A DNA stretch of 64,000 nt from Johnsonella sp. (lineage in GTDB: Bacteria; Bacillota; Clostridia; Lachnospirales; Lachnospiraceae), in the NCBI GenBank assembly GCA_030529445.1, contig JAUMWW010000002.1, forward strand, positions 54,595 to 118,594. The letters run 5' to 3'. Positions 28,060-56,119 of the stretch are shown here, piece by piece; position 1 is the first letter of the stretch; every line of letters begins with the position of its first letter. The position numbers and the translations under genes were made by a program. Below the pieces are notes generated by a model. That model saw only the letters and a program-made list of their open reading frames with translations. It did no database searches and was not told the origin of the DNA.

Positions 28060-28131
28060 TGACCAATCCGGGAATCGAACCCGGGTTTGCGCCGTGAGAG
28101 GGCGCCGTCTTAGCCGCTTGACCAATTGGCC
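28060..28131 (-). tRNA. tRNA-Glu (anticodon CUC)
   Basis: Reverse complement GGCCAATTGGTCAAGCGGCTAAGACGGCGCCCTCTCACGGCGCAAACCCGGGTTCGATTCCCGGATTGGTCA. Closely resembles Gram-positive tRNA-Glu; anticodon loop CTCTCAC. Confidence 0.8.
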
Positions 28132-28139
28132 ATATATAG

Positions 28140-28213
28140 TCGAGGCGACAAGATTTGAACTTGCGGCCTCAGCGTCCCGAACGCTGCGCTCTACCAAACT
28201 GAGCCACGCCTCG
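28140..28213 (-). tRNA. tRNA-Pro (anticodon CGG)
   Basis: Reverse complement CGAGGCGTGGCTCAGTTTGGTAGAGCGCAGCGTTCGGGACGCTGAGGCCGCAAGTTCAAATCTTGTCGCCTCGA. C1-G72 acceptor pair typical of tRNA-Pro; anticodon loop TTCGGGA. Confidence 0.8.
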
Positions 28214-28441: not shown

Positions 28442-29629
28442 CTATTCTTTAAAGATCGAGTTTTTAAGCATTTCCTTCGCCTCTTCTTCGCTCAGCTCAT
28501 AATGATAGAAAAGCTGGTAAAACTCCCTTGCCTGCTCCACCATATCATATGGATATTCTTCCGGGAAGAGCAGACTTCCCAGCCATTGCATTCCGAGAAT
28601 CCTGTTTACCGAGGGCGGTCTTCCCACCCAGTTATAGGGCAGAGAGGGTGCAAGATATACCTTTTTATTCTTCACCGCCTCCAGGCTCGACCATGCGGCA
28701 TCCGACAATATTAATTCATATACTTTTTCGTCTGCCGTGATAATCACATCCGGAGCCCAGTTGATGAGCTGCTCCATCGATACTTCCGCTCCGCTCTTGC
28801 TTCCCTTTTCCAGCTTTGCCACATTCTCCGCGCCGAGGAATTCTATGGTTTCCGAATGGATGGATTCCGCTCCTATCGTCGTAAGTCCGTTTTCACCCTC
28901 GGCATAAAACACCTTCGGCTTGGTCGTGACTTTTTGAGCATTGCTCCTTGCCAGATCCAGAGCTTCCTTGCAGTACTGCGAAAGCTTATTTGCCTGCTCC
29001 TCTTCTCCTAAAATTTTGCCCAGCGTAATATACGCCTCCGGAAGCTTCTCAAATGTTGCCTCGATAAATACGGTCGGTATCCCGGTCTGGGTCTGTATCG
29101 TATCCATCCCTTCCTTGATATCATCCTTCGGCTCTCCGAGATCTATGACAAGCACAGGTCCCGCCGCAATCAGCGCCTCCATGTTCAGATTTGCATTCTT
29201 TCCGTAAAATGCGCCGAATTCCGGCTTTTCCGCATACTTTTCTGCGATATACTTCATCTGCTCTTCTTTCGGCTTCGAACCCCAGCCCACCATTTTATCT
29301 GGAGCGACGGAATAAAGCATAATTTGCGCCAAATATCCGGAGGGGGCTATTTTCTCTATCTTTTCCGGAATTTCAACTTCTCTTCCTATTGAGTCCGTAA
29401 ACATCACCGTCCCGGATTCCTGCTCCTTCCCGGATTCTTTTGAGGCTTCCTGCGAAGTCTGCTCCGCGCTTTCCTGCGCTTGGCTGCTCTGCGCGCTCTG
29501 CTTTGCAGTCGCTTCCTCTTTGCTTGTCTGTTCCTGCGCTGTCTGACTCTGTGTGTTCTGCTGATTTGCACAGCCCGGTACGGAAATCACGATTCCGATC
29601 AGCAGGGGTAACCAAAATCTCTTCATCAC
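28442..29629 (-). CDS. ABC transporter substrate-binding lipoprotein, cluster-8 class (iron-siderophore/corrinoid type, FecB/BtuF-like)
   Basis: Lipobox (VPGCANQ). Q/S/E-rich linker. Bilobed PBP fold with the GAESIHSE / LAPSLPYNW region typical of Fe3+-hydroxamate/B12 binding proteins. Confidence 0.7.
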   Translation of the reverse strand: MMKRFWLPLLIGIVISVPGCANQQNTQSQTAQEQTSKEEATAKQSAQSSQAQESAEQTSQEASKESGKEQESGTVMFTDSIGREVEIPEKIEKIAPSGYLAQIMLYSVAPDKMVGWGSKPKEEQMKYIAEKYAEKPEFGAFYGKNANLNMEALIAAGPVLVIDLGEPKDDIKEGMDTIQTQTGIPTVFIEATFEKLPEAYITLGKILGEEEQANKLSQYCKEALDLARSNAQKVTTKPKVFYAEGENGLTTIGAESIHSETIEFLGAENVAKLEKGSKSGAEVSMEQLINWAPDVIITADEKVYELILSDAAWSSLEAVKNKKVYLAPSLPYNWVGRPPSVNRILGMQWLGSLLFPEEYPYDMVEQAREFYQLFYHYELSEEEAKEMLKNSIFKE

Positions 29630-29678
29630 TTTTTCCTCCTCATTTTATTTTATACCGCAGCCAAATCAGGCTGCGTGA

Positions 29679-30242
29679 TTAAACATTTTCCAATACCCGG
29701 TAATAACTCTTTCCGGCACAGTTTTTGCACATGGTCTTCCCGTCTTTTACGAGCTCTTTTCTGTCAATGATCTCTTCCCCGCAGATAGCGCAGCTTGTCG
29801 CTCCGATCGGTTTTCCCGGTCTGTCCTCCGCTCTGATTTCTATCTCTATTTTTTTTACCGAAAACAGTTCTTCGTTTTTCAGATCCGCAAAAAACTGCGC
29901 GATATCTTCCCCCTCGGGAGGATATATGCAGGATTTCCTGTAAATCCTGTACCCTTCCCCGGTATCCATATTGATAAAGCTGCATGCCGTTTTTCCGTAG
30001 TCCAGAAATACAAACCTTCTTTTCCCCGCTTTGCAGCCCGTAACGCTCATGATGGAATCCGCTATGCAGCGATCCGTTTCCACATATATTTTTAAGTTCT
30101 TATAATCTTCTTTTACTCCGAGATGAAGCAGCTCTATCGCATATAGAGCCATCTTCACCCCAATTGCCTGCCCCGAGCAAAGATGCCCGTGATAAGCCGT
30201 CGCCTGATCCAATTTTTTCAAATAATAGTTTTTATCGAACAT
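29679..30242 (-). CDS. FmdE-family protein with C-terminal zinc ribbon
   Basis: AYHGHLC...GVKMA N-terminal FmdE/FwdE-like domain. CAICGEEI...CKNCAG CxxC-N-CxxC ribbon. Confidence 0.6.
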   Translation of the reverse strand: MFDKNYYLKKLDQATAYHGHLCSGQAIGVKMALYAIELLHLGVKEDYKNLKIYVETDRCIADSIMSVTGCKAGKRRFVFLDYGKTACSFINMDTGEGYRIYRKSCIYPPEGEDIAQFFADLKNEELFSVKKIEIEIRAEDRPGKPIGATSCAICGEEIIDRKELVKDGKTMCKNCAGKSYYRVLENV

Positions 30243-30243
30243 C

Positions 30244-31002
30244 TCAACTCCTTTCTTTTTCTTTTGCAGCCTTCCTGATGATCAGGATGCTGATTCTTTT
30301 GTCAACGCTGATAAAAAACCGAAAGCCTTCATTTAATATTCTGTATTCTTCCTTTAATCTGCTCTCCTCGATGATTTCCTGTATTTCGCTTTCGGTGTTT
30401 TGAGTATAGGAGTGCAAAAAATTTCTCGCATCCTCCTCATCTCTTAAATACTGACCGTTTTCACATTGCAGCTCTATTTTCTCGTATTCCAGATTTTCAC
30501 TGTCGAGATAAGGGCAGATCGTATCCGCATTCTCTTTTCCTCTCCTGACGTCATCATCCGTATTCATCCCACTGTATTCGGTGGTATTTACGATTAAAAT
30601 CACTCCCTCCTTCGCCATGGAAAGAATCTTTTTTAAATCCCTCGTCGGTCTTAAGAAAAATTTTGCGACCATATAATCCCTGTCATAAAAACAGCTCTCG
30701 TAAATATCCGTTCTTATCGGAATAATATTTTTTATCTTCCGCTTTTTGATGTTTGCCGCCAAAACATCGAGGACTTTGCTTTGGATATCGGCTGCAATCA
30801 CGCTATCCGCATATTTTGACATTGCAAGGGAGAAATACCCGGTGCCGCATCCTAATTCCGCCACTTTTTTCCCTTCTATATAGGGTTTGATTTTTTCAAC
30901 GATTTTTTCGCTGATTTGATTGCTTTCATTGCATACGATATTCCAATATATCTTATCCTCGTTCCAATGAAACATGGTTTTTTCCTCTCCCATTTCTGCC
31001 AC
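30244..31002 (-). CDS. Class I SAM-dependent methyltransferase
   Basis: Motif I VAELGCGTGYFSLAMS; acidic residue after beta2 (AADIQ); 252 aa. Embedded between the transporter genes. Confidence 0.75.
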   Translation of the reverse strand: MAEMGEEKTMFHWNEDKIYWNIVCNESNQISEKIVEKIKPYIEGKKVAELGCGTGYFSLAMSKYADSVIAADIQSKVLDVLAANIKKRKIKNIIPIRTDIYESCFYDRDYMVAKFFLRPTRDLKKILSMAKEGVILIVNTTEYSGMNTDDDVRRGKENADTICPYLDSENLEYEKIELQCENGQYLRDEEDARNFLHSYTQNTESEIQEIIEESRLKEEYRILNEGFRFFISVDKRISILIIRKAAKEKERS

Positions 31003-31051
31003 CTTTCGCCCAGCCGGGACTCATCCGCTCTCCTCCCTCATCCCGGATGAA

Positions 31052-31816
31052 CTAGACGATCGGCACACAGACCTGCATGCCGTCTATCTCTTTGATATCT
31101 ATCTCTATCTTATAAATATTTTCGAGTGTCTCTATCGTAACCGCATCCCTGGTATCCCCATAGCGCAAAACCTTTCCGTCCTTTAGGATCAGCGCCTTCT
31201 CGCTGAATAATAAGGAGTGCTGAGGATTGTGATTTGAGAGAATCACAATATATCCCTCCCGGGAAAGCTGCCTGATCTTTTTCATCACCCTGATTTGATT
31301 CCCGTAATCGAGATTGGAAGTCGGCTCATCCATGATCAGTATTTTGGCATCCTGAAGCATGGCTCTTGCAATCAATACAAGCTGCCGCTCTCCCCCGCTG
31401 ATATCCAAATAGCCCCGATCCGCAAGATCGCATATGCCCAGATACTCAAGAATATCGGCAGCCTTGGCAAAATCTTCCTTCTTCGGTGAGGAAAATATAT
31501 TGATCCTGCTTGCGGAACCCATGATCACGACATCCATCACTCTGTAATTAAAGTGCGGAATATGAACCTGCGGGATATAAGCTATTCTTTTTGATATTTC
31601 CTTTGCCGAAAGCTGCGAGATTTCGGTCTGATCCAAATAGACGGCACCTGTTTTCGGCTTCAATACTCCAAGCATACATTTGAAAAGCGTGGATTTTCCC
31701 GCCCCGTTTTTCCCCAATACGCAGAGCAGGGTATCCTTTTCGACCCTGAAACTGATCCGGTCGAGGATGAGCTTTTCTTTATACGCAAAGCTTAAGTTTT
31801 CAACCCTGATATCCAT
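31052..31816 (-). CDS. ABC transporter ATP-binding protein (FepC/FecE/BtuD type)
   Basis: Walker A GKNGAGKSTLFK, signature ISGGERQL, Walker B ILIMDEPTS. Confidence 0.9.
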   Translation of the reverse strand: MDIRVENLSFAYKEKLILDRISFRVEKDTLLCVLGKNGAGKSTLFKCMLGVLKPKTGAVYLDQTEISQLSAKEISKRIAYIPQVHIPHFNYRVMDVVIMGSASRINIFSSPKKEDFAKAADILEYLGICDLADRGYLDISGGERQLVLIARAMLQDAKILIMDEPTSNLDYGNQIRVMKKIRQLSREGYIVILSNHNPQHSLLFSEKALILKDGKVLRYGDTRDAVTIETLENIYKIEIDIKEIDGMQVCVPIV

Positions 31817-31823
31817 TCTCCTC

Positions 31824-32825
31824 CTACTTGCTTTCTCCGACTTTATAAATCAGATATAAAAACATCGGCGCACCTATCATTGAAGTGAGTATCCCCAGAG
31901 GAATCTCCGAGGTGGCAATATTCCTTGCAAAATTATCCACGAATAATAAGAAGGTCGCCCCGAGCATGCAGGATGCCAGAAGCAAATATCTGTAATCATA
32001 GCCCACCAGCATCCTTGCAAAATGAGGGATCACAAGACCTACCCACCCGATAATGCCGCTTACGCTGACGCTTGCCGAAGTCATCAGCGTTGCGCATACA
32101 ATAATGACAAGCTTGAGCAGTTTGACATTGATCCCGAGACTGAGCGCCTCCTCCTCCCCCATCGTAAGCATGTTTATCCTCCACCGGATCAAAAACAAAG
32201 GAATAAAAGCAATCAAAACGGGGAGGCTTAAGAAAAGCACATCCTCGATCTTTATTGAGGCAAGCGAGCCCATCAGCCAATAGGTTATCGCCGGCAGGGT
32301 GTTTTCGGTATCCGCAATCAATTTCAAATAGGAAATAAATGCGGAAAACAACGAGCCCACCATAATGCCGGACAATATCATGCTGAAGGTTTTTTCCGCT
32401 CTTGATCTCTCACTGATGAAATAGGCGAGACTCACCGCAAAGAGTCCCATAAAGAATGAAATTACCGTTATGTTTGCATAGCCGAGTGAAAAAAAGATTC
32501 CCAATGCCGCTCCGAATCCCGCCCCGTTCGACGCCCCCAAGACCTCGGGCGAAACCATGGGGTTTTTAAACAGTCCCTGATACACGCAGCCCGCACAGGA
32601 TAAGGCGCTCCCTATCAATGCTCCCGCGATGATCCTCGGCAATCGGATTTGAAAGATTACCGTCTGCGCATTATTATCCCATGTCTGATCCAGTCTTATC
32701 AGCCTCGATAAGAGGATTTTAATGACATCAAAAGGATGTATGCTATACCTGCCTACGGCAAAAGAAAATATGAAGGTAAGGATTAATATCAAAAACATGA
32801 CTGCAAGTTTTCTTTTTCTATTCAT
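31824..32825 (-). CDS. ABC transporter permease, FecCD/BtuC family
   Basis: About 9-10 TM segments; FecCD family conserved Gly-rich regions; 333 aa. Confidence 0.85.
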   Translation of the reverse strand: MNRKRKLAVMFLILILTFIFSFAVGRYSIHPFDVIKILLSRLIRLDQTWDNNAQTVIFQIRLPRIIAGALIGSALSCAGCVYQGLFKNPMVSPEVLGASNGAGFGAALGIFFSLGYANITVISFFMGLFAVSLAYFISERSRAEKTFSMILSGIMVGSLFSAFISYLKLIADTENTLPAITYWLMGSLASIKIEDVLFLSLPVLIAFIPLFLIRWRINMLTMGEEEALSLGINVKLLKLVIIVCATLMTSASVSVSGIIGWVGLVIPHFARMLVGYDYRYLLLASCMLGATFLLFVDNFARNIATSEIPLGILTSMIGAPMFLYLIYKVGESK

Positions 32826-33026
32826 CTTCCCTCTGAAACACGCTCCATCTTAAATGTATTGATTGAATGCAGTTTTTAAATCTCCTGTTTTTGTCAATTT
32901 TCTTCTTTGTCTTACATTAAAAATCAGTTGTTTTAATCTGTGTTTTGTTTTTATCCACAAATCTCTTTGGTCAGATTTCATATCATTGCAGCTTTTATTA
33001 TACTTCATTTATTAAATAATATCAAT

Positions 33027-33069
33027 GCCCCTCCGCCCCTGATTTTCAGAAAATCAGGGGCGGAGGGGC
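33027..33069. terminator. Perfect 17-bp GC-rich palindromic hairpin; terminator between the rSAM operon and the ABC importer operon
   Basis: gcccctccgcccctgatttt-cag-aaaatcaggggcggaggggc, 27 nt downstream of the radical SAM gene stop. It is a perfect palindrome, so it folds on either strand. Confidence 0.6.
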
Positions 33070-33095
33070 AGAAAATTACTCTCCGGATAAACCCT

Positions 33096-34073
33096 CTAAG
33101 CCGTCGTCCCTCCGCAGCTTGAACCGGCGCCTGCGGTACATGCATAGCAATGCTTTCCGGTTATGATGGTTCTGGGCTTCATCTCTTCGTTTAGGATATC
33201 GAATATGCTGAGTCTGCCCTCCGCCTTGATATCCGCCGCCTGATTGAAATCACAATCATAGATATACCCCTCCCATGAGACGGAAATCTGATTTCTGCAC
33301 ATCATATTTTCTACGGCAGCCTCATTATAGTTTAAGTAAAGCGCCTCGAGATAGGATTCCAAATTTCCGCTCTCCTTGAGGAAATCCCCGAATCTTCCGA
33401 TCGGATTATTCGTAATCGTATAAAGATCATTGAAAACGATGCCGTGCTCTTTACCAAGTCTTTCTTTATAGAGTTTTTTCATCGCCTCCTGGCAGGGCGG
33501 CATAAAGGCTCCCGCGGGATTGTATACGATATCCAGCTTAAGATTTTCATCCCTTCCGTAACCGATCTCATTGAGCAGCTTGAGCACTTTAAGCGATTTT
33601 TCAAACACCCTGTCTCCCCTCTGGATATCGGTGTTTCTTTCCGTATAAAAAGGCAATGAGCAGACAATGTTCACCTTATGCTTTTTATAAAATTCCGGGA
33701 GATGGCGGTATTTTTCTCCCAGGAGGATGACCAGATTGCTCCTGACAATCACATGCTTTGCAAGCTTTGCCGATTCACTCACGAAAAACTCGAAATTAGG
33801 GAACATCTCCGGTGCTCCCCCGGTGATATCGATGGTCTCGAAGCCGTATTTTTTTGCAGCCGAAAGACAGGCCTGCATGACCTCCATGGACATGATTTCT
33901 TTTCTCTCCGGTCCCGCCTCCAGATGGCAGTGCCTGCAGCGCAAATTACAGAGTCTTCCCAGATTAACCTGCAAACCCCCGAGTTTATTCAATGTTTTGA
34001 GCCATTCCTTATGATCCACGGTCTCGGCAAATTCCGGAATGCTTACACATTTTCCCAATTCCTCTATATTCAC
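33096..34073 (-). CDS. arsS: ArsS-family radical SAM protein with Cys-rich C-terminal domain (rSAM_SeCys/DUF3641-type); Cys rather than Sec version
   Basis: CX3CX2C cluster motif CNLRCRHC at residues 42-49. C-terminal HCYACTAGAGSSCGGTTA tail matching the CxxCTAGxGSSCGG-type signature of this family. No in-frame TGA. Confidence 0.7.
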   Translation of the reverse strand: MNIEELGKCVSIPEFAETVDHKEWLKTLNKLGGLQVNLGRLCNLRCRHCHLEAGPERKEIMSMEVMQACLSAAKKYGFETIDITGGAPEMFPNFEFFVSESAKLAKHVIVRSNLVILLGEKYRHLPEFYKKHKVNIVCSLPFYTERNTDIQRGDRVFEKSLKVLKLLNEIGYGRDENLKLDIVYNPAGAFMPPCQEAMKKLYKERLGKEHGIVFNDLYTITNNPIGRFGDFLKESGNLESYLEALYLNYNEAAVENMMCRNQISVSWEGYIYDCDFNQAADIKAEGRLSIFDILNEEMKPRTIITGKHCYACTAGAGSSCGGTTA

Positions 34074-34082
34074 AAAAACCTC

Positions 34083-34424
34083 CTATTTCATCGATAATTT
34101 ATTCGATATATTCTTGCTTTGAACGCCGAATGCCAAAGTCGCGCCCCCCTTGATCGCAGCCGCAACATGGATGGCTTCCATAATCTGATCCTGATCGCAG
34201 CCATGGGAAAGCGAAGCGTTGGTATATGCATCGATACAGTAGGGGCACTGTACCGTATGCGCCACCGCAAGCGCAATCAAGGCCTTTTCTCTCGCGGTAA
34301 GCGCTCCCTCCGCAAATACATTGGCATAGTATTCCATAAATTTATTCCAAAGCTCTCCCGCATCTTCTCCGATAATGCCCGCTCCGAATTTTTCCAAATC
34401 TTCTTTATTGAAATAACTGCTCAT
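34083..34424 (-). CDS. AhpD-like (carboxymuconolactone decarboxylase fold) CxxC protein; rSAM-associated 'peroxidase-like' partner
   Basis: MSSYFNKEDL... is about 113 aa with a VQCPYC motif on the AhpD core helix. The track ORF 34083..34499 is N-terminally over-extended; the MSSYF start overlaps the upstream gene end by about 20 nt. Confidence 0.6.
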   Translation of the reverse strand: MSSYFNKEDLEKFGAGIIGEDAGELWNKFMEYYANVFAEGALTAREKALIALAVAHTVQCPYCIDAYTNASLSHGCDQDQIMEAIHVAAAIKGGATLAFGVQSKNISNKLSMK

Positions 34425-35409
34425 TTTCCTCTCCCTCTCTTTCTGAATCTTCTCTCTCTTTCTTTGCCTCGCAGAGTGTAAATCCCTGCAAAAGAGCATC
34501 TTTGATTTCCATGCAGCAAATCCCCATTATCCTCTCCCGGTAAGAGAGGGCGGCGGGGCTTGTTTTCTCCCAATTGCTGTCAAAATGACGGAGAAACTCC
34601 CGATGCGGATAATGGATCGGAAGCGCTTCTATATAGGTTCCTTCCAGCTCGCAGCGATAGAGCGCAAGCGGATGCTTCGTCTTTCCGATTCTTGTCAGCA
34701 GGCCGAAATGCGTACCCGAAAAATTCGGCATGCCTGCGGCACCGTTATTGATCACCGCTTTCTTCTCCAGCCGCAGCGCAGCCGGAGCACAGGTATGGGT
34801 GCAGGCTATGATATCGATGCGGTTTTCTTCCATCCATTTTCCGAGCTCCTCCTGCCTTTGTCTTTCCCGGAGATTCTCCCTCGCACAGCCCCAGCCTGCC
34901 AGAGACTTCTCGTCTCCGTGCAGCAGGGCAACTCTCTTGCCCGCAGCCAGACAGCAGCAGGATTTTTTTCTCTTTCTCATCCCCTCCCCGGGATAGGAGT
35001 TCTTTTGCAGCATCTCTTTTAAGCCCTTATGGATCAGATTGGAGCGCTCCACCACTTTCTCATCCACATAGGGAGGATAGGCGCAGCCGCAGCCCGCGCC
35101 GATATCCTCTTCTCTGATCAGCTCCGCCTCTACATTGCCCAAAATCGCGCCATGCTTCTTTGCCGCATTTTCTATTTTAATAAAGTCTTGCATCTCTCTC
35201 TCGAACCAATGCAGATCTCCGTTAAAAATAATTTCTGCGCCCCCCTCTTCCTCCTCTGCCATGGCAAGGACTTTTTCCAGAGCATAGGTATTTCCGTAAA
35301 GCCCGCCTACCGCATAGAGGGTGTCGCAGGATAACTCCTCCTTTTTGTTCTTAAAATCCTCTCCCTCCAGCCCGTATCCCGAGGGACAGAACCTCCCCGC
35401 CTGCTTCAT
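34405..35409 (-). CDS. Metallophosphoesterase-family protein (TIGR04168-like, rSAM-associated)
   Basis: LYAVGGLYGN, FNGDLHWFE, VALLHGDE calcineurin-like motifs. Multiple Cys pairs (GAGCGCAYPP, SCCCLAAG). Acidic C-terminus. Confidence 0.55.
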   Translation of the reverse strand: MKQAGRFCPSGYGLEGEDFKNKKEELSCDTLYAVGGLYGNTYALEKVLAMAEEEEGGAEIIFNGDLHWFEREMQDFIKIENAAKKHGAILGNVEAELIREEDIGAGCGCAYPPYVDEKVVERSNLIHKGLKEMLQKNSYPGEGMRKRKKSCCCLAAGKRVALLHGDEKSLAGWGCARENLRERQRQEELGKWMEENRIDIIACTHTCAPAALRLEKKAVINNGAAGMPNFSGTHFGLLTRIGKTKHPLALYRCELEGTYIEALPIHYPHREFLRHFDSNWEKTSPAALSYRERIMGICCMEIKDALLQGFTLCEAKKEREDSEREGEENEQLFQ

Positions 35410-35429
35410 AAAATTTCCCTCATTTCTCC

Positions 35430-36818
35430 TTATGCCGGCTCTTTTGCTCCCGCAGGATATTTAAGCAATATGCCCGGCAGGATACAGCCCGCACTGCAAA
35501 GAAGCAGCCCGTAGAGATTCACGCCAAGCAATAATGCCTGTTTTCCCGTGCCTATCGCAAAAAAAGCGGGAACTGCGCCTAATGTCAGTGCAAAGCCCAG
35601 AATGATTCCGCACCAGAAGCTCAAATGAAATCCGAGTTTCGTCGGTCTTACGATTCCATGCAGTAAAAATACGGGAGCGAGCCCGATCACCATCGTACCG
35701 CTGATTGTCGTCGCCTTTAAGATATCCGTACCCAGAACCATAGGAATATTTCCGAGAAAAGCAAAAAGCACCATTACCGCCATTCCTAACTTTCTTCCCC
35801 TTTCTCCCAGATCCTTTTTACGCATCTGCGGCAGGTCAAATGCGACCAGCTTTGCCACGCTCGAAAAGGTGGAGTCGAGAGTGGAGCCGGCTGCGGATAC
35901 CATGACCGTGATCATCAGGAAATAGGCGAGACCTCCCATCATCTTTCCCAGCTGCGCGGGCACATTATCCGATACCTCTATGCCCTGATTCGCCGCGTAA
36001 ATGCCGATAAAGCTGAATACCAGGATGGCAAGAAAGCCCAAAATTCCCGAAATAATAAAGGATTTTAACATCACTTTCTCATCCGAAATAAATCCCCTGT
36101 CCGTGAGCACCGGATCATGAAAAGGATAGCTTAAAATCTGCAGGCAGGATACCAAAAGCATATCCACTCCGGTTTCCAGCTTCCACTCTCCCGAGCCGAG
36201 TACGGCGGAAAATGAGGTCTTGGGCATAATCAATACCAGAATCCATATTACGAAAAAGACAAAGATAATCGCCTGAATGGCATCCGTTACAATCGAGCTT
36301 CTAAGCCCTCCCTTCATCGAATATGCCAGGGTGATGACCGTAAACAAAAGAGCCGGGATCACAAAACTCTTGCTGCCGGAAGCCCCGTAATATCCTCCGA
36401 CTACGGAGGTATTGCTCCAGACCTCATTGAAGAGCCGGATTAAAATCGCCGCGGAAAAGGCAAAAGCGGCTCCGTGCCCGTAATTGGAAGTCAGAAAGCT
36501 TACCAGACCGGTCGCTCCGTATTTTTTGCGCAGCCGGTAAATCGCAAATCCTGCCAAAGGAATACAAAGCCAGTATGCCGCATACGCCACTCCGCCGACG
36601 ATTCCGTACTTTGCCCCGAGATTCGCCGCATTGGTAACCGATTTTGCAAAAATCCAGCTGATAAAGAGGCTTGCCGTAAGCATGAAAGGAGATGCCGCCC
36701 TTCCTTTGCTGTCCTCTCCTCTGAAAAATCCGCCGAGCGTAACATGGCGCGGCAAAAAAATCATCATCAGCAAGCCGTAAACCACCAAAAATCCCCAAAA
36801 AAATATTCCCGTATTCAA
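35430..36818 (-). CDS. Sodium:solute symporter (SSS) family transporter
   Basis: About 13 TM segments. SSS signature GGLRSSIVTDAIQ. Confidence 0.75.
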   Translation of the reverse strand: MNTGIFFWGFLVVYGLLMMIFLPRHVTLGGFFRGEDSKGRAASPFMLTASLFISWIFAKSVTNAANLGAKYGIVGGVAYAAYWLCIPLAGFAIYRLRKKYGATGLVSFLTSNYGHGAAFAFSAAILIRLFNEVWSNTSVVGGYYGASGSKSFVIPALLFTVITLAYSMKGGLRSSIVTDAIQAIIFVFFVIWILVLIMPKTSFSAVLGSGEWKLETGVDMLLVSCLQILSYPFHDPVLTDRGFISDEKVMLKSFIISGILGFLAILVFSFIGIYAANQGIEVSDNVPAQLGKMMGGLAYFLMITVMVSAAGSTLDSTFSSVAKLVAFDLPQMRKKDLGERGRKLGMAVMVLFAFLGNIPMVLGTDILKATTISGTMVIGLAPVFLLHGIVRPTKLGFHLSFWCGIILGFALTLGAVPAFFAIGTGKQALLLGVNLYGLLLCSAGCILPGILLKYPAGAKEPA

Positions 36819-36857
36819 TGCCGATACCCCCTTCTTTCTTTTCCTTATTTTTTGATT

Positions 36858-37328
36858 TTATATGCTCTTATCATCACTCTTTTCTTCCGCCTTTTGCTCC
36901 GCCAGAACCTGCTTAAGCAAAAGAATCACATCCTCCGTCAGCTTCGGGCAAAAATCCAGAAGCTTTCCGCTTTCCAGGGCTTTTTGCAGTTCCTCGGGCT
37001 TGGATAAATCATATTCCAAAAGATCTCTGCACATCGTAGAGCCGTATTTTTCAACAAAGAGCTTCTTGAAGGCATCCGATTTCTCTCTCATCACCGCCTT
37101 CTGTTCGCTGTCTCCCTCCTTATCATGACCGAATTTCATTCCGATAATCATTAAGGCGGCGATGACCGATCCGCAGGTCTCCCCTCTCATCATGCCTCCG
37201 CCGAAGCATGCGCCCAGCCTTCTCATCACCTCCTTATCCAGTCCGAGCTCCTGCGCGAAATTTTCCGCTACCACCTGGGAACAATCTATGCCCTGCATAA
37301 ATAGTCCCTTGATTTCCTCACTGTTCAT
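36858..37328 (-). CDS. C_GCAxxG_C_C family putative redox-active protein
   Basis: IDCSQ...GACFGGGMMRGETCG matches the C-GCAxxG-C-C Cys spacing; 156 aa. Confidence 0.7.
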   Translation of the reverse strand: MNSEEIKGLFMQGIDCSQVVAENFAQELGLDKEVMRRLGACFGGGMMRGETCGSVIAALMIIGMKFGHDKEGDSEQKAVMREKSDAFKKLFVEKYGSTMCRDLLEYDLSKPEELQKALESGKLLDFCPKLTEDVILLLKQVLAEQKAEEKSDDKSI

Positions 37329-37406
37329 CTTATTTCTCCCTCTTACCGCTTCAAAATATTGTGTTTTTATACAAAAAGTTTCAGCCTATGTATTTTATAA
37401 TAAGGT

Positions 37407-37453
37407 TAAAAAAAATGCAAGGAAGTTTCGGTCAAATACGCAAAACTTCCTTA
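37407..37453 (-). terminator. Intrinsic terminator downstream of the ABC exporter pair
   Basis: Minus-strand hairpin aaggaagttt / aaacttcctt (10 bp) followed by U8. Confidence 0.55.
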
Positions 37454-37520
37454 CATTCTCTATTTTTCTTTTTTTCATGAAGAAGAGGAAAGCGCTTGTT
37501 TATTTTAAGAGATTTTTCCC

Positions 37521-39269
37521 TCAGCCTTCTTCTCCGATTTTCCAATTCAGGCTCTCCTGCTGAATCCGATAGAGCCTTGAAAATAAGCCTTCTTTGGCAA
37601 GCAGCTCCCCGCCGCTCCCTTCTTCGATTATCCTTCCCTTATCCAAAACAATGATCCGGTCGGCATTGATGATCGTGCGCAGCCGATGCGCAATGACCAG
37701 AACGGTCTTTTTTGCCACCAGCCGATTGATTGCCTGCTGCACAAAGACTTCGCTTTCGGGATCAAGAGAGGCGGTCGCCTCATCAAGAATAACGATGGGT
37801 GCATCCTTTAATAAGGCTCTTGCGATAGAAATTCTCTGACGCTCTCCCCCCGAGAGCGTCGCTCCGTTTTCTCCGAGCAGTGTTTGATACCCGAGAGGAA
37901 GCTTCTCTATAAATGCCGCGCAGCATGCCGACTCCGCCGCCGCTCTTATCTCTTCCTTCGTGGCGTCGGGGCGCCCTATGCGGATATTTTCTTCCACCGT
38001 ATCATGAAAAAGAGTCACTTCCTGAAAGACAAAAGAAAATTTTTTCATCAGTATTTCGGGATCGATTTCCTTTATCTGTCTTCCTCCGAGGAGGATCCTT
38101 CCCTCGTTTGCATCCCAGAATCTTGCGGCAAGCTTGGAGATCGTGCTCTTTCCGCTTCCGGAGGGACCGACAAGCGCCGTAATCTTCCCTTCTTCGGCAA
38201 GGAAGCTGATCTCTTTGAGCACCCGGTCTTTTCCGTAAGCAAAGGAGACTCCCTCAAAGGATATTTCCGTCTTCTCGGGCGGCATATCCGTACTGCCTTC
38301 CATCGGGATGCTCTTCATCAGTTCTTGCAGGCGTTTCGTCGAAACCTGCAAATAGAGCATATCCGGGAGCAAGGTAAGGACGGTCAGGATAGGACCGTAT
38401 ATTCTTCCCGCAATCAGCAAAAACATGAGCAAATGCAAAAAATCAAGCTCTCCCGCCGACAATAAGCCGATGCCGACAAAGCTTACGATTCCTATACCGC
38501 ATCTGAGCAGCATGGTCGAAAGAGCCATCACGGATCCCGAAAATAATTCGATACGGATTGCCGCCTTCTTCAGCTCCATAAAGGCATCATCCAAATACCT
38601 GAACTTTTCCCCTCCCAGTCCGCACGCCCTGATTACCTTGATTCCGTCGAGGTATTCCTGCGCCTGTTTTTGCGCGTCAAGCTTTGCGGTTACATGCTGT
38701 TCAAAAAAGTATTTTTGCAGCCTGCGGCTCAGATAAAATACGAGTGCCGCTATCGGAAGCATGAGATAAAGAACAAGCGCCATCCTCCAATCAAACGCGG
38801 CAAGAGCTATGCAAACAATCGTGGAAGAGATGAGGCTGGCAAAAAGCTGAGGAACGATATTCGAAGTGCTCGTTTCGATATTGGTACAGTCCTCCATAAT
38901 ATTTGCGGAGAGCTCCGCAAGATCTCTGGCATTGAAAAAGCTCATCGGAAGCTTCCTCATCTGTTCCGCCACGCGCATGCGGTTTTTTTCCGATTGCCGA
39001 TAAGAATTGAGATAGGTTTTTAAATAATCATGTTTTGAAAGCGTAAAGATGAAAAAAAACACCAATATGCCGATACCGAATAAAATCCATATCAAAGTCC
39101 ATGAAACCTCACCTCCGGATAAGGGCTTCATCAACTCCGTAAAGAGCCGGATCGTAATCGCAAAAGGAAGCATGAGAGAAATACTCGTAAACAAACAGGC
39201 TAGGATTGCTCCCCTGAGCCCTTTCTGTGCATCTTCATCCAAAAGCAAAAGCGTTTTCAGCTTCCTCAT
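37521..39269 (-). CDS. ABC exporter half-transporter (TMD-NBD fusion), heterodimer partner B
   Basis: 6-TM N-domain. Walker A GPSGSGKST, signature LSGGERQR, Walker B IVILDEATS. The internal start MRKLKTLLL overlaps the upstream stop (ATGA). Confidence 0.85.
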   Translation of the reverse strand: MRKLKTLLLLDEDAQKGLRGAILACLFTSISLMLPFAITIRLFTELMKPLSGGEVSWTLIWILFGIGILVFFFIFTLSKHDYLKTYLNSYRQSEKNRMRVAEQMRKLPMSFFNARDLAELSANIMEDCTNIETSTSNIVPQLFASLISSTIVCIALAAFDWRMALVLYLMLPIAALVFYLSRRLQKYFFEQHVTAKLDAQKQAQEYLDGIKVIRACGLGGEKFRYLDDAFMELKKAAIRIELFSGSVMALSTMLLRCGIGIVSFVGIGLLSAGELDFLHLLMFLLIAGRIYGPILTVLTLLPDMLYLQVSTKRLQELMKSIPMEGSTDMPPEKTEISFEGVSFAYGKDRVLKEISFLAEEGKITALVGPSGSGKSTISKLAARFWDANEGRILLGGRQIKEIDPEILMKKFSFVFQEVTLFHDTVEENIRIGRPDATKEEIRAAAESACCAAFIEKLPLGYQTLLGENGATLSGGERQRISIARALLKDAPIVILDEATASLDPESEVFVQQAINRLVAKKTVLVIAHRLRTIINADRIIVLDKGRIIEEGSGGELLAKEGLFSRLYRIQQESLNWKIGEEG

Positions 39270-41038
39270 GCCTCTTCCTCCTTTCTCCCGATGCCCCATT
39301 TGATCGTCTCCTGATATCGGGTCCACATCCCCGCATAGAGGAAGTTTTTTTCCAGAAGCTCGGCATGCGTACCGCTTTCTGCCAGCCTTCCCCCCTCCAT
39401 TACCAATATTTGATCCGCGGATTTGATGGTTCCCAATCTATGCGCGATGATGATGAGCGTCTTCCCCCTGCTTAGTTTACTCAGGGCAATCTGTATCTTG
39501 CGCTCGTTTTCCGAATCCGCAAAGGCGGTTGCCTCATCCAGCACCAAAACGGGAGCGTTTTTCATGATTGCGCGGGCAATCGCAATACGCTGCGCCTCCC
39601 CTCCGGACAGATGCACTCCCTCTTTTCCGATTACCGTATCATATCCCTTCGGCAGCTTTCTTATAAAATCGTCGCACATTGCCGCCTTCGCCGCACGGAT
39701 CACCTCCTCATCCCCCGCATTCGGACTTCCCATGCGGATATTATCCCGAATGCTCCGGCTGAAAAGATACACATCCTGAAAGACAAAGCTTACCCGGCGC
39801 ATCAGCTCCTCCTCCGCCATATCCCGGATATCCACGCCGCCTATCGATATGCTTCCCGAGCTCACATCCCAAAATCTCGGAATCAGATGCGCGATTGTGC
39901 TCTTTCCTCCTCCCGAAGGACCGACAATTGCGGTTATTTTTCCTTCCGGAGCAGTAAAGCTCAGATCCGAGAGCGCCAAGGAATCATTCCCCTCATAAGA
40001 AAAGGAAACCTTATCAAATACCAGCGCATTGCTCCTCGGAGCTTTATCATTCTTCCCCTCGGGCATCCTGGGAAGAGCCATCATGGCATCATAGCTTCTG
40101 ACTCCTCCGGATACTCTCATGCTCGAAGAAGATACATACATAAACTTATGCAGCACGGAAGCGATCGCCGGCGCAAAGACGAGATAAAACATGAAATTCA
40201 GCAGAAAATGCCGATAGTTTTTGCTTCTGCTTCCTATCACTATGCCGAGGGGAATCAGAAAAAGATAAATATTATTTATCATCGCCATAAATAAAGCCGT
40301 GGAATTCTTCCACTTCATCGTATATGCCAGCATAAATTCGGTATATTTTTTTATTGACCCGCAAAGCTGCTTAAAGGAATGTGCGGTTTGCCCGAATGCC
40401 TTCAAGACCGGCATCCCTCTGACATATTCTACGGTCGCCTCCGTCATATCCGCCTCATTTTTTTGCAGCTTCTCCATTAATTCGGAGACGGATACTCCCA
40501 TCGCCGCAAACTGAATGGCAAAAGCAATCATAACCGCAGCCAGAGAGGCAAGCCCGAAGCGCCAGTCAAAAACAAATAAAATAATCAGCAGAGCAATCGG
40601 AGCCACAAAAGAGGAAACCATATCCGGATAAACATGGGCAAGAAAGCTTTCCATCTTCTCGATATCCTGATTCATTACCTTGCGGAAGCGTCCGCTTCCG
40701 ATATTCAGATGAAATCCCAAGGGGATTTTTGCGAGATGCTTTGCAAATCCCCTTTTTAACTTATATTGTGTACCGAAAGCAGCCAAATGGGCACAGATCG
40801 AGGAGAGCAGAAAGCAGAGAGCATCCGCTGCGGCAAATAGGATCGCAAGCCCTCCGTATCCGAGCAGGAGCTTCGTATCGATTCCTCCCATATCCGGGTA
40901 GATCTCTATCAAATGCCGAATGAGCAGATATACGAAGACATAAGGAATCAATGAAGCGGCGGCGGCAAAAGCCGCAAGCAATCCGCTGATCAGAAGCAAT
41001 CCCCTATGCTCCGCTGCCAATTCAAATATTCGCTTCAT
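39266..41038 (-). CDS. ABC exporter half-transporter (TMD-NBD fusion), heterodimer partner A
   Basis: 6-TM N-domain. Walker A GPSGGGKST, signature LSGGEAQR, Walker B VLVLDEATA. Confidence 0.85.
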   Translation of the reverse strand: MKRIFELAAEHRGLLLISGLLAAFAAAASLIPYVFVYLLIRHLIEIYPDMGGIDTKLLLGYGGLAILFAAADALCFLLSSICAHLAAFGTQYKLKRGFAKHLAKIPLGFHLNIGSGRFRKVMNQDIEKMESFLAHVYPDMVSSFVAPIALLIILFVFDWRFGLASLAAVMIAFAIQFAAMGVSVSELMEKLQKNEADMTEATVEYVRGMPVLKAFGQTAHSFKQLCGSIKKYTEFMLAYTMKWKNSTALFMAMINNIYLFLIPLGIVIGSRSKNYRHFLLNFMFYLVFAPAIASVLHKFMYVSSSSMRVSGGVRSYDAMMALPRMPEGKNDKAPRSNALVFDKVSFSYEGNDSLALSDLSFTAPEGKITAIVGPSGGGKSTIAHLIPRFWDVSSGSISIGGVDIRDMAEEELMRRVSFVFQDVYLFSRSIRDNIRMGSPNAGDEEVIRAAKAAMCDDFIRKLPKGYDTVIGKEGVHLSGGEAQRIAIARAIMKNAPVLVLDEATAFADSENERKIQIALSKLSRGKTLIIIAHRLGTIKSADQILVMEGGRLAESGTHAELLEKNFLYAGMWTRYQETIKWGIGRKEEEA

Positions 41039-41053
41039 CTTCCTTCTCCTCTC

Positions 41054-41674
41054 TTATTTCATTTCTTTTATGAAGCCCGCCTTGATCAAATGCTTCTGAA
41101 AGATCTTTTTTGCAAGCAATGCTCCCGAAATGGACATGAGAAACGTAAGCAGCAGGGCAAAGGCAAGATAAGGTCCGTTGATAAAATTCACCAGCCGAAC
41201 CATAAATTCCTTATCAATGCCGTTCCCCTCGGCGAGCTTAAGGTAATACTCCTTCATCAGAAGAAAGGGCATATAGGAGCCGATTGCCGTTGCAATCATC
41301 AGGACGGCATAGCCCATCGTCTCACGAAAATAGCTTTGCTCTCCCCCTCCCCTGATCAGCTCGGCGATCAGGGCGCCGAGAAAGACGGAGACAAAGATCG
41401 GCCATCCGCTTCCCATCCCGAACATAATGAGTCCGAATAAGCTTCCGAAGAGGATGATCGCTCCTCTTTTGGGCGTTTTTGAACGAAGCAGCATATAGAC
41501 GGAGGCTCCGACAAAAGATCCCAATGCGACACCGAAGGGAAGCGTATAGACGCTCATGCTCATGATCATAATGCAAAGCATAAAAAGGATCAGAAAGATC
41601 ACGCCGAATATTCCTATGCCGATAAAGTCCTTTCCCTTCAGCTTTTTGCCCGCAGTATTCATGTTTTTCATCAT
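41054..41674 (-). CDS. Putative ECF-transporter S component, Trep_Strep/MptD-like family
   Basis: About 206 aa. 5-6 hydrophobic helices. Strongly basic C-terminal tail (KKIFQKHLIKAGFIKEMK), as described for the Trep_Strep family. Immediately downstream of EcfAA'/EcfT. Confidence 0.5.
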   Translation of the reverse strand: MMKNMNTAGKKLKGKDFIGIGIFGVIFLILFMLCIMIMSMSVYTLPFGVALGSFVGASVYMLLRSKTPKRGAIILFGSLFGLIMFGMGSGWPIFVSVFLGALIAELIRGGGEQSYFRETMGYAVLMIATAIGSYMPFLLMKEYYLKLAEGNGIDKEFMVRLVNFINGPYLAFALLLTFLMSISGALLAKKIFQKHLIKAGFIKEMK

Positions 41675-41690
41675 CTTATCTTCCTCGCTT

Positions 41691-56110: not shown

Positions 56111-56119
56111 CATCAGCAA

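Follow-up and report, generated by a model that had tools for sequence, protein, structure and literature searches.

Gene arrangement and boundaries of the unit

The window, that is, the whole 64-kb stretch of DNA from a Johnsonella species (Lachnospiraceae) that was analysed, contains five genes arranged head to tail on the minus strand. In the direction of transcription, these are a C_GCAxxG_C_C gene (36858..37328, 156 aa), an SSS-like transporter gene (35430..36818, 462 aa, TTG start), a gene for a phosphoesterase-like protein, designated MPE (34405..35409, 334 aa), an AhpD-like CxxC gene (34083..34424, 113 aa, ATG start preceded by GGGAGAGGAAA), and an ArsS-type radical SAM gene (33096..34073, 325 aa, GTG start preceded by AGGAGG). 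The stop of the MPE gene and the start of the AhpD-like gene overlap by exactly 20 nt (34405..34424), and the remaining gaps measure 9, 20 and 39 nt. A first-pass annotation of the region had described the same five open reading frames and the same overlap, together with the motifs CNLRCRHC, HCYACTAGAGSSCGGTTA and VQCPYC, each of which is present in the translations.

A minus-strand hairpin (33027..33069) lies 27 nt past the ArsS stop codon. It had been annotated as a perfect 17-bp GC hairpin; the hairpin is real, but its stem comprises 20-21 perfect pairs, of which 13 are G-C. Its folding energy is -46.2 kcal/mol (z = -7.2 relative to shuffled sequences), and the U-richness of its 3' tail (UUGAUAUUAU) is only moderate. 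It is likely the transcription terminator of the unit, and marks its 3' boundary; past it lies a strong promoter-like site of the next operon (33025-32997, 11/12 matches in a promoter scan). At the 5' boundary, a second minus-strand hairpin followed by a U-run (~37410..37461; -26.3 kcal/mol, z = -6.8) separates an upstream ABC exporter gene from the first gene of the unit, and is likely the terminator of the ABC-exporter genes. This hairpin did not figure in the first-pass annotation. The AT-rich segment 37330-37410, with TATAAA at 37399-37394, is likely the promoter region of the unit; the promoter scan called no consensus promoter within it. The five genes are thus bracketed by hairpins at both ends, no internal terminator was found between them in a scan of the window, and they are probably co-transcribed as one operon.

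Family assignment of the five proteins

Judged by its sequence, the last gene encodes a bona fide ArsS-family radical-SAM enzyme. The protein matches the ArsS model TIGR04167 end to end with 425 bits (cutoff 300) and PF12345 with 177 bits, which bears out its placement in the ArsS/rSAM_SeCys family, and it contains C42-x3-C46-x2-C49, a DUF3641 domain and the C-terminal tail HCYACTAGAGSSCGG. Its AlphaFold2 model (pLDDT 83) has no close solved structural relative among the folds searched; the nearest are SPASM/twitch/MoaA-type radical-SAM enzymes, SkfB, SuiB, anSME, PqqE and MoaA among them, with TM ~0.5. All motif residues and cysteines are retained. Of the columns that ArsM-linked ArsS proteins conserve, about 30% are different in the clade of the window's protein, some non-conservatively (positions 44, 95, 226, 229, 238, 262, 279-280 and 289); from the alignment, these differences could indicate another substrate or mere phylogeny. 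Characterised members of the family transfer the 5'-deoxyadenosyl radical of SAM to the arsenic atom of dimethylarsenite, and the product is 5'-deoxy-5'-dimethylarsinoyl-adenosine (PMC13598754; bioRxiv 10.64898/2026.04.29.721666). The earlier suggestion of a pathway never characterised in Firmicutes was overstated: GenBank already names this protein ArsS (MDO4787732.1, Johnsonella sp. MAG), and NCBI curates the wider gene system as 'arsenosugar biosynthesis'.

The two small thiol proteins were correctly recognized. The AhpD-fold CxxC protein reaches 167 bits with TIGR04169 (cutoff 120) and 65 bits with PF02627. It is a companion of ArsS nearly everywhere; in 74 of 80 ArsS-anchored genome loci, its gene is the one immediately upstream. 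The C_GCAxxG_C_C protein scores 93.7 bits on PF09719 (cutoff 27) and 58 bits on TIGR01909 (cutoff 47.4), and homologues adjoin ArsS in Dorea (L004-006), Clostridium aromativorans (L010) and loci L104, L108 and L172.

For the two other proteins, the family names required revision. The transporter had been called an SSS-family symporter; it resembles that family, but remains under the curated cutoffs (PF00474, 20.6 bits against 22.8; TIGR00813, 34.6 against 184), and no sequence match was found in the PDB. Its sequence suggests a divergent SSS/APC-type membrane carrier. Its orthologues in Treponema pedis, Peptostreptococcus, Desulfitobacterium and Pseudomonas show 63-76% identity to it and, in every context examined, adjoin a phosphoesterase-like gene.

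The MPE had been assigned to the TIGR04168 metallophosphoesterases. This assignment fails: neither the protein nor 10 of its relatives or look-alikes matched TIGR04168 or any other NCBIfam model, and its matches to Pfam Metallophos lie below the gathering score, so that by these profile searches it would fall outside every curated family. Its AlphaFold2 model (pLDDT 89.6) nevertheless confidently predicts a metallophosphoesterase fold, the best Foldseek match being the Ap4A hydrolase SapH (3qfn, E = 2e-9, TM 0.56/0.73). Dimetal phosphoesterases of the YfcE/SapH/Vps29 type (Pfam Metallophos_2) share this overall fold, and the MPE keeps their motif II GD, motif III GN, motif IV H and the first His of motif V. 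However, alignment with E. coli YfcE shows GxY in place of the motif I DxH, Val for the catalytic His of GNH, and THTC for GHxH, the last His being replaced by Cys; the MPE also gains a loop with an invariant CGC and an N-terminal GRxCPxDY segment. Among 40 homologues, C8, C107, C109, C207, D65, N92, H164 and H205 are invariant. In the sequence, the metal-1 ligands are thus replaced, and four of the invariant residues are cysteines.

Conservation of the arrangement

If the five genes were adjacent by chance, as the first-pass annotation had allowed for, their arrangement should not be conserved in related genomes. An identical five-gene order, with 82-98% identity, was found in locus L172, which comes from a close relative. 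AhpD, ArsS, SSS and MPE genes occur together in changed order in P. faecalis (L003), T. pedis (L090/091), Desulfitobacterium-type contigs (L173/L178) and L131; on the Peptostreptococcus, Treponema pedis and Desulfitobacterium-type contigs, it is the AhpD–ArsS and transporter–MPE pairs that co-occur, in differing orders. A Pseudomonas locus (L089) has ArsS-SSS-MPE without AhpD. Of the MPE-anchored metagenome loci, 28 have 3 kb of flank or more; 21 of these (75%) carry ArsS and 16 carry the SSS gene. The five-gene unit is not a chance adjacency, and very probably represents a conserved ArsS-family operon.

The MPE is not, for all that, the obligate partner of ArsS that it had been taken for: it is present in only 2 of the 80 ArsS-anchored genome loci, the other 78 having AhpD and ArsS without SSS or MPE, as do the closest relatives (L001/L002). 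Conversely, at least 8 loci have an SSS+MPE pair with no ArsS within 7-10 kb, which suggests that this pair may serve a separate function. Transporter and MPE form a second, widely conserved pair, usually beside an ArsS gene, and the Johnsonella unit joins a thiol-rich protein to two conserved modules of two genes each.

Substrate, proposed function and relation to known systems

None of the ~30 annotated genes of the window encodes ArsM, ArsR, Acr3/ArsB or ArsC, in agreement with the earlier report of no arsM, arsenite efflux or ars repressor gene; nor could a nucleoside phosphorylase, TIGR04282/04283 or VTT gene be detected in the 64 kb. Lacking arsenite methylase, nucleoside phosphorylase and transferases, the operon presumably cannot build arsenosugars from inorganic arsenic. 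In the ArsS tree, association with ArsM is confined to Bacteroidota and cyanobacterial clades, and only one of the 28 MPE-anchored loci has an ArsM-like gene. An ArsM-like methylase does occur in some related clusters: in L104, an ArsS-CGCA-SSS-MPE cluster, it lies beside an aquaglyceroporin (190 bits on NF008823), and in L176, an Acinetobacter plasmid cluster, it (177 bits) adjoins a phosphate transporter and an MTA phosphorylase. Arsenic therefore stays the most likely substrate, and we favor an arsenical by a modest margin of confidence.

The best explanation, to which we would give about an even chance, is a pared-down organoarsenical module whose substrate is imported, reduced or bound, and adenosylated. 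The Na+/solute-symporter-like carrier, proposed as the importer of the substrate, would take up an oxyanionic arsenical that is already methylated, dimethylarsinate for example. The phosphoesterase-fold protein, with the ligands of one metal site lost and an invariant CxC plus C (plus N-terminal C) gained, would bind this phosphate-like arsenical, and reduce it or hand over the trivalent form; its role as binder or reductase is speculative. Resulting disulfides would be recycled by the AhpD-like CxxC protein and by the C_GCAxxG_C_C protein, proposed as a component of a thiol/disulfide relay. ArsS would then adenosylate the trivalent arsenical, and the product might be released or trimmed by housekeeping nucleosidases. 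Phosphatase folds have given rise to arsenate reductases more than once (ArsC from LMW-PTPase, Acr2 from Cdc25/rhodanese), and As(III) is bound by three-cysteine sites. The specific roles proposed for transporter and MPE are tentative, and rather doubtful.

The alternative that survives best, though unlikely, is that ArsS of ArsM-less anaerobes adenosylates some other soft centre (selenium, sulfur, tellurium or antimony) in a compound brought by the transporter, and that the CxxC, C_GCAxxG and Cys-rich proteins handle a chalcogen instead of an arsenical. ArsM is absent from the window and from the window's ArsS clade, and the non-conservative differences from ArsM-linked ArsS listed above would fit this reading. 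So would the rhodanese sulfur/selenium-transfer domains recurring in Firmicute and Treponema clusters, an FGE-sulfatase/EgtB-like protein in T. pedis, and the SSS+MPE pair that P. equinus has near a glycine reductase selenoprotein operon. The rhodanese domains are, however, also found in ArsM-containing clusters (19/80 loci), and theirs is the fold of Acr2-type arsenate reductases. The ArsS family was reportedly first flagged through selenocysteine-containing members. The NCBIfam names of ArsS, AhpD-like, rhodanese and C_GCAxxG proteins all bear '(seleno)protein', and TIGR04167 is listed among predicted selenoproteins (PMC9312934), which counts for another nucleophile; but a selenocysteine in an enzyme is the sign of a redox-active residue and does not point to selenium as the substrate. 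Moreover, the only chemistry demonstrated for the family is that of arsenic, ArsM-like genes occur in two otherwise MPE- or VTT-type clusters, and the retained motif residues and cysteines argue in the same direction.

Somewhat less probable again is a role in resistance, not in salvage or biosynthesis: highly toxic trivalent methylarsenicals from neighbouring microbes would be converted to a pentavalent adenosyl adduct, with the transporter exporting the product or being functionally unrelated. The operon ends at the ArsS step, with no downstream arsenosugar genes, and the host lives in dense oral communities. High cross-phylum identity with Treponema pedis (SSS 75%, AhpD 79%, ArsS 65%) suggests horizontal spread, typical of resistance cassettes. 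Yet carriers of the SSS type are as a rule ion-coupled importers, neither an ArsR-type regulator nor an efflux pump lies nearby, and no plasmid or phage copies were found other than Burkholderia-type plasmids. Mutation of arsS in Synechocystis does not cause sensitivity to arsenite (bioRxiv 10.1101/2022.09.23.509062), which also counts against resistance.

We consider it improbable that the two pairs are independent, AhpD-ArsS doing one job and SSS-MPE (with or without C_GCAxxG) another, such as phosphoester uptake and hydrolysis, with no functional meaning in their adjacency. The loci having only one of the pairs would be explained in this way. Against it, both pairs co-occur in at least five phyla, their order reshuffled and their linkage kept, and three quarters of well-flanked MPE loci have ArsS. 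A single Maribacter ORF (MPE::AhpD, L070) joins the phosphoesterase-like and AhpD-like domains, and in P0195 and P0214 the MPE ORF continues into the ArsS N-terminus; in the window, the 20-nt overlap and the lack of an internal terminator point the same way. Finally, a SPASM/twitch peptide or protein maturase, similar to anaerobic sulfatase maturases and acting on a Cys-rich neighbour, is effectively refuted, since the likeness to solved folds is that of the radical-SAM core only, a precursor-peptide gene is absent, and the MoaA, AlbA and sulfatase-maturase models give only 19-38 bits (cutoffs 349-850) against 425 for TIGR04167. A grouping with sulfatase or peptide maturases, by which the first-pass annotation would have been refuted, is thus not seen.

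We regard the operon of this oral anaerobe as a partly new form of a known system, in which ArsS lacks the usual arsenic methylase and sugar-building genes and is accompanied by a transporter and a Cys-rich MPE-like protein. The arsS gene of Synechocystis adjoins arsM, and the two are co-transcribed (bioRxiv 10.1101/2022.09.23.509062). The window's radical SAM protein belongs to the same family (equivalog model TIGR04167), shares the CX3CX2C motif, DUF3641 domain and C-terminal Cys tail, and presumably adenosylates a trivalent arsenical by the same radical chemistry. A Pseudanabaena plasmid carries ArsM near ArsS, separated from it by a single VTT gene, along with VTT proteins and a MerA-like reductase; the window lacks ArsM, VTT and MerA-like genes alike, and AhpD, SSS, MPE-like and C_GCAxxG genes take the place of the cyanobacterial arsM-type neighbours.

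The Bacteroidota 'arsenosugar biosynthesis' clusters have the order TIGR04169-ArsS-TIGR04282-ArsM-PNP-TIGR04283-rhodanese (ArsM, NF038099, 578 bits; PNP, purine nucleoside phosphorylase; rhodanese, NF045521). The AhpD-like gene is directly upstream of ArsS in both, and the window's ArsS is 49-56% identical, but the window lacks ArsM, nucleoside phosphorylase, both transferases and the small rhodanese. Where the SSS and MPE-like pair does occur in Bacteroidota-type loci (2/80), the MPE-like protein is a shorter variant with 25-26% identity. The proteobacterial and soil clusters, ArsS-(SSS)-MPE-VTT::FAD-reductase-TIGR04283-TIGR04282, exemplified by Pseudomonas L089 and Burkholderia plasmids, have the same MPE-like (39-50% identity) and SSS (55-68%) families beside ArsS. 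Unlike the window, they carry the VTT-flavoprotein reductase fusion and two transferases; an AhpD-like gene is found in only one of 28 loci, and their ArsS proteins form separate clades, 43-50% identical to that of Johnsonella.

Anatomy of the five-gene unit and identity of its core proteins

As the first-pass annotation had described, the minus strand carries a head-to-tail series of five genes at 33096-37328. From 5' to 3' they encode a C_GCAxxG_C_C protein (36858-37328, 156 aa), an SSS-like carrier with a TTG start (35430-36818, 462 aa), a phosphoesterase-like protein, hereafter MPE (34405-35409, 334 aa), an AhpD-like protein (34083-34424, 113 aa) and the radical-SAM protein ArsS (33096-34073, 325 aa), which begins at a GTG after AGGAGG. 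Intergenic distances, in the same order, are 39, 20, -20 and 9 nt; the overlap of MPE and AhpD comprises the 20 nt at 34405..34424, exactly as had been claimed. The ArsS gene is followed by a perfect hairpin (-46.2 kcal/mol, z = -7.2 relative to shuffled sequence), with a stem of 20-21 bp rather than the 17 bp first reported. A second strong hairpin with a U-run (around 37410-37461; -26.3 kcal/mol, z = -6.8) lies just past the upstream ABC-exporter gene. A promoter-like site with 11/12 matches (33025-32997), 3' of the downstream hairpin, serves the next operon; overall, the consensus promoter scan that includes it was no better than chance (18 sites found, 17.4 expected). Bounded by the two hairpins and by the promoter-like site of the next operon, the five genes look like a single transcription unit, an anatomy that suggests co-transcription. 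Rfam searches of the whole window (gathering threshold) and of 32700-37700 (E <= 1) revealed no riboswitch or leader within or ahead of the operon, and the only matches, of miRNA models to the hairpin, were judged spurious.

Directly past the operon terminator is a five-gene minus-strand set (28442-32825) composed of a BtuCDF/FecCD-type ABC importer, namely permease (31824-32825), ATPase (31052-31816) and binding protein (28442-29629), with two unusual embedded genes, one for a class-I SAM methyltransferase (30244-31002), the other for a protein that combines an FmdE domain and a DksA/TraR zinc ribbon (29679-30242). Three clustered tRNA genes follow (27945-28213, minus). The region upstream of the operon (37521-43783, minus) begins with two ABC exporter genes, the ORFs of which share 61 nt (39266-39326), and goes on to an MptD/Trep_Strep ECF S-component (41054-41674), an ECF ATPase in duplicated form (41691-43082) and an ECF T component (43079-43783). 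Beyond it lie a divergent AraC-type regulator (43965-44918, plus), a single tRNA (44995-45077, minus) and a TPP riboswitch (56111-56214, minus; 60.1 bits) that precedes the gene at 54809-55990.

The radical-SAM protein scores 425 bits on the NCBIfam equivalog TIGR04167 (cutoff 300), in an alignment that spans positions 6-302 of the 303-position model, and 177.4 bits on PF12345/DUF3641 (cutoff 24.9). The next-best models, MoaA, AlbA and sulfatase maturase, reach just 19-38 bits against cutoffs of 230-850, so the outcome that the first-pass annotation had named as refuting its reading did not arise. GenBank names the protein "arsenosugar biosynthesis radical SAM protein ArsS" (MDO4787732.1). Its cluster motif CX3CX2C reads C42-N-L-R-C46-R-H-C49 and its C-terminal Cys motif HCxxC..GSSCGG reads H308-C309-Y-A-C312-T-A-G-A-G-S-S-C320-G-G; the motif positions are unchanged across 16 homologues. 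Only 34 of 138 tails from loci with an ArsS match fitted the C-terminal motif, and none of these had an in-frame TGA in it, which makes for a weak check on selenocysteine. In a neighbour-joining tree, the protein falls in a small clade with those of Peptostreptococcus faecalis, Treponema pedis and the comparison loci L001 and L002; these two loci, which hold its closest relatives (66% identity), carry the AhpD-ArsS pair only. Linkage to ArsM (arsenite methylase) and phosphorylase is confined, in this tree, to the Bacteroidota clade. Of the columns compared, 101/143 of those conserved in ArsM-linked ArsS, a phylogenetically narrow set, are kept in the window's clade. From work on other members, ArsS is known to form DDMAA by redox-neutral addition of the 5'-deoxyadenosyl radical to dimethylarsenite (PMC13598754; bioRxiv 10.64898/2026.04.29.721666). 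By homology, this activity is putative for the window protein. The literature found on DUF3641, the TIGR families and the annotation names consisted almost only of selenoprotein catalogues and ArsS enzymology.

The AhpD-like protein scores 167.2 bits on TIGR04169 (arsenosugar biosynthesis-associated peroxidase-like, AhpD fold; cutoff 120) and has the CxxC motif C-P-Y-C. Its gene, 9 nt from ArsS, lies directly upstream of it, as it does in 74/80 ArsS-anchored loci. The C_GCAxxG_C_C protein scores 93.7 bits on PF09719 (cutoff 27) and 58 bits on TIGR01909 (cutoff 47.4). Genes of this type adjoin ArsS in Dorea, in Clostridium aromativorans and in loci L104 and L108, where the order is ArsS-C_GCAxxG-SSS-MPE. 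The identities first proposed for ArsS, its AhpD-like partner and the C_GCAxxG_C_C protein are all borne out. Sequence searches of the PDB found no close solved relative of the C_GCAxxG_C_C protein, of the MPE profile or of ArsS, for which the only match was 8wm2 (E = 1e-4) over the cluster-binding stretch; for the transporter, no solved relative was detected.

The phosphoesterase-like protein and the transporter

The MPE had been taken for TIGR04168, an obligate third member of an ArsS triad. The gene is real and conserved, but this assignment did not hold, so that two of the three triad assignments stand. At E <= 1 the protein matched no NCBIfam model, TIGR04168 included (the presence of TIGR04168 in the searched library is unconfirmed). 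Nor was TIGR04168 or any other NCBIfam model matched at E <= 0.01 by any of ten MPE relatives or look-alikes from other phyla, seven of them family homologues (39-50% identity) and three more distant MPE-like proteins. The MPE is below the Pfam gathering thresholds for PF00149 (19.8 bits, threshold 21.5) and PF12850 (22.3 bits, threshold 27). It is named "calcineurin phosphoesterase" in GenBank (MDO4787734.1), and PGAP calls a Burkholderia homologue 'hypothetical protein'. Its AlphaFold2 model (pLDDT 89.6, pTM 0.89) was compared with the PDB using Foldseek: the best 50 matches were all of metallophosphoesterase fold bar one integrative model. The best was the Ap4A hydrolase SapH (E = 2e-9), and PF1218608, the Pyrococcus and Sphaerobacter MPEs, Vps29, lambda phosphatase and PP5 were also matched. 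The MPE is therefore predicted, from its model, to have a metallophosphoesterase fold.

When the MPE was aligned with E. coli YfcE and with 40 members of its own family, the full dimetal ligand set (DxH, GD, GNH, H, GHxH) was not found. The metal-2 ligands D65, N92, H164 and H205 are kept. Those of metal 1 are swapped, DxH being replaced by G36-L-Y38 and GHTH (GHxH) by T204-H205-T206-C207, and GNC/H reads G91-N92-V93, the catalytic His of GNH being Val. All 40 members share an invariant C107-G-C109 in an inserted loop and an invariant GRxC8PxDY segment at the N-terminus; shorter variants in Flavobacteriaceae retain the CGC and GHC cysteines.

In Maribacter sp. PR1 (L070, 8647-9852), a single ORF of 401 aa comprises a Cys-bearing MPE domain and a TIGR04169-type AhpD CxxC domain, and adjoins an SSS-like gene and ArsS. 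This fusion is a Rosetta-stone link between the MPE and AhpD-like proteins of the window. Three high-GC metagenome proteins from ENA (P0195, P0214 and P0196) run from an MPE ORF through a linker into an ArsS-type N-terminus (…NVTARCNLACAHCHVESGP…); each is either a genuine fusion or a pair of neighbouring genes joined by a frameshift. P0195 continues into RCC1 repeats, and its assembly may be chimeric. Taken together, the Maribacter fusion, the read-through ORFs and the MPE/AhpD overlap in the window point to physical or functional coupling.

The assignment of the transporter to the SSS family is tentative. The protein is named "sodium:solute symporter" in GenBank (MDO4787735.1), as are its homologues in their sources, but its scores are below the curated cutoffs (PF00474, 20.6 bits against 22.8; TIGR00813, 34.6 bits against 184) and concern the N-terminal 160 residues only, which suggests a divergent member. 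Between Johnsonella, Treponema, Peptostreptococcus, Desulfitobacterium and Pseudomonas (35430-36818 compared with homologues P0242-P0360), identity is 63-76%. Across Bacillota, Spirochaetota and Pseudomonadota, conservation of the transporter greatly exceeds that of its partner proteins (about 50%). Such conservation at the sequence level suggests either very strong constraint or recent horizontal spread.

Gene neighbourhoods of ArsS and of the phosphoesterase-like gene

Conservation of the neighbourhood, which the first-pass annotation had put forward as a check, was found. Locus L172, a close relative, has the identical five-gene order, with proteins 82-98% identical to those of the window. 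Elsewhere the modules recur reshuffled: AhpD-ArsS-SSS-MPE in P. faecalis; SSS-MPE-FGE-like-x-rhodanese-AhpD-ArsS in T. pedis; AhpD-ArsS-rSAM-rSAM-SSS-MPE in Desulfitobacterium-type contigs; ArsS-SSS-MPE followed by a VTT::flavoprotein fusion in Pseudomonas; and, in metagenome locus L131, all of AhpD, ArsS, SSS and MPE in an order differing from that of the window. The neighbourhood is thus conserved module by module. Some of these clusters have extra radical-SAM genes for proteins of about 316-335 aa, which in Desulfitobacterium-type contigs separate ArsS from the SSS gene (L173, 5828-7913; L178, 5426-7461) and in T. pedis lie one gene away from the SSS gene (L090, 3457-4407). They were considered as ArsL or other arsenic enzymes and rejected, with only weak BioB/PhpK-like matches.

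Two surveys were carried out. The first was anchored on ArsS and covered 80 loci of species-representative genomes, mostly Bacteroidota, with neighbours counted within 8 kb. Besides the AhpD-like gene (74/80), the neighbours were TIGR04282 in 52 loci, ArsM (NF038099) in 29, purine nucleoside phosphorylase (PNP) in 27, TIGR04283 in 24 and a small rhodanese (NF045521) in 19; MPE-like, SSS-like and C_GCAxxG genes were found in two loci each. The second was anchored on the MPE, using 28 metagenome loci flanked on either side by 3 kb or more: ArsS was a neighbour in 21, an SSS-like gene in 16 and a VTT protein in 12, with an AhpD-like and an ArsM-like gene in one each. From the proportions 2/80 and 21/28, the MPE is a frequent, non-obligate partner of ArsS, and it marks a cluster type distinct from the ArsM type.

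Other SSS-MPE pairs lack a DUF3641 radical-SAM gene in the surrounding 7-10 kb (L087/L088, L094, L107, L110, L111, L113, L114 and L177). In Peptostreptococcus equinus such a pair adjoins the selenoprotein operon for glycine reductase; the genes that flank the pair in L110 encode a rhodanese and a GNAT acetyltransferase.

We conclude that a conserved operon unites an ArsS-family enzyme and its usual CxxC partner with a C_GCAxxG protein, a transporter and a protein of Cys-substituted phosphoesterase fold. Its identity as an ArsS operon and as a functional unit is very probable.

Possible substrate and function of the operon

The absence of arsM, noted from the start, holds for the 64-kb window: tblastn with two ArsM references found no ArsM-like sequence, and homologues of ArsM, PNP/MTAP, the arsenosugar-cluster transferases TIGR04282 and TIGR04283, and VTT were lacking at E <= 1 beyond noise. 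The same queries readily detected the arsenosugar genes (ArsM, phosphorylase, TIGR04282/04283) in Bacteroidota loci. The methyltransferase at 30244-31002, 2 kb downstream, was considered as a hidden ArsM and is not one: it gave generic class-I matches only, including a weak CpaM-like one, with no ArsM model among 25 listed of 57 NCBIfam matches, and it belongs to the separate BtuCDF-type importer operon, which has its own promoter-like site. In Bacteroidota, ArsS is accompanied by an ArsM-type methylase (578 bits on NF038099), as it is on a plasmid of Pseudanabaena. The ArsM-like methylases of L104 and of an Acinetobacter plasmid cluster, in the latter adjoining a phosphate transporter and an MTA phosphorylase gene, are sub-threshold (177-190 bits on NF008823). 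In L104 (10495-12379), an aquaglyceroporin (MIP) gene and the ArsM-like methylase come directly after ArsS-C_GCAxxG-SSS-MPE; in three loci from Bacteroidota (L032, L037 and L049, around 10950-11660), the stretch just downstream of ArsS gives weak MIP-like matches.

As it encodes neither a methylase nor any of the later enzymes, the operon probably uses a methylated arsenical made elsewhere; on balance, we favour an arsenical as the substrate. A route can be sketched in which the symporter-like carrier would import the substrate, dimethylarsinate being a small oxyanion of the type that SSS carriers handle. The MPE would bind the phosphate-mimicking pentavalent arsenical and reduce it or hold it on its cysteines. 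ArsC and Acr2 both derive from phosphatase folds, the parallel proposed here for the MPE. The CxxC and C_GCAxxG proteins would then re-reduce the MPE cysteines, and ArsS would adenosylate the trivalent species. The specific roles given to the transporter and the MPE are tentative. More speculative still is the broader picture for ArsM-less host-associated anaerobes, in which the ArsS operon would serve to salvage or transform a methylated metalloid brought in by import. The MPE would then be an arsenical reductase or As(III)-handling protein, the fourth to derive independently from a phosphatase and hitherto unrecognised, or a selenium or tellurium handler, and the SSS-like carrier would be the first dedicated importer of an organoarsenical or other metalloid oxyanion.

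Among other explanations, the one that survives best is that ArsS acts on a non-arsenic soft nucleophile (selenium, sulfur or tellurium); the lack of ArsM, the selenoprotein-rich families concerned and the recurrent rhodaneses speak for it, and we hold it to be unlikely, on a par with the broader picture just outlined. Slightly less likely is detoxification of trivalent methylarsenicals produced by neighbouring microbes. That two unrelated modules merely sit side by side is improbable, the at least eight SSS-MPE pairs with no ArsS nearby being in its favour and the coupling of MPE with AhpD and ArsS pointing the other way. A SPASM-type maturase, suggested by the resemblance of the ArsS core fold to SkfB, SuiB, anSME and MoaA (TM ~0.5), is excluded by the NCBIfam scores (425 bits on TIGR04167 against 19-38 for the MoaA, AlbA and sulfatase maturase models) and can practically be dismissed.

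Gut and oral Clostridia, spirochaetes, Pseudomonas and soil bacteria widely carry ArsS-type genes, and the public label for all of these genes is "arsenosugar biosynthesis". The operon shows a sizeable ArsS group that has nothing else needed for arsenosugars and is linked to two conserved, uncurated and uncharacterised proteins. Resolving its function would correct a probable over-annotation. The cargo of the transporter and the function of the MPE would tell whether human-associated anaerobes turn dietary methylarsenicals into adenosyl-arsenic compounds or, alternatively, would show the ArsS reaction reaching other elements. Since the operon has five genes only, the question is directly testable by heterologous expression and element-specific mass spectrometry.

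In Synechocystis, arsS adjoins arsM and the two are co-transcribed (bioRxiv 10.1101/2022.09.23.509062). The characterised cyanobacterial system couples ArsS genomically to arsM, whereas the window ArsS has no such coupling within 64 kb. The system as such is known, being curated in NCBIfam and characterised in cyanobacteria, with the window protein itself named ArsS in GenBank; the compact variant without ArsM, and the two uncurated families that partner ArsS in it, had not been described.
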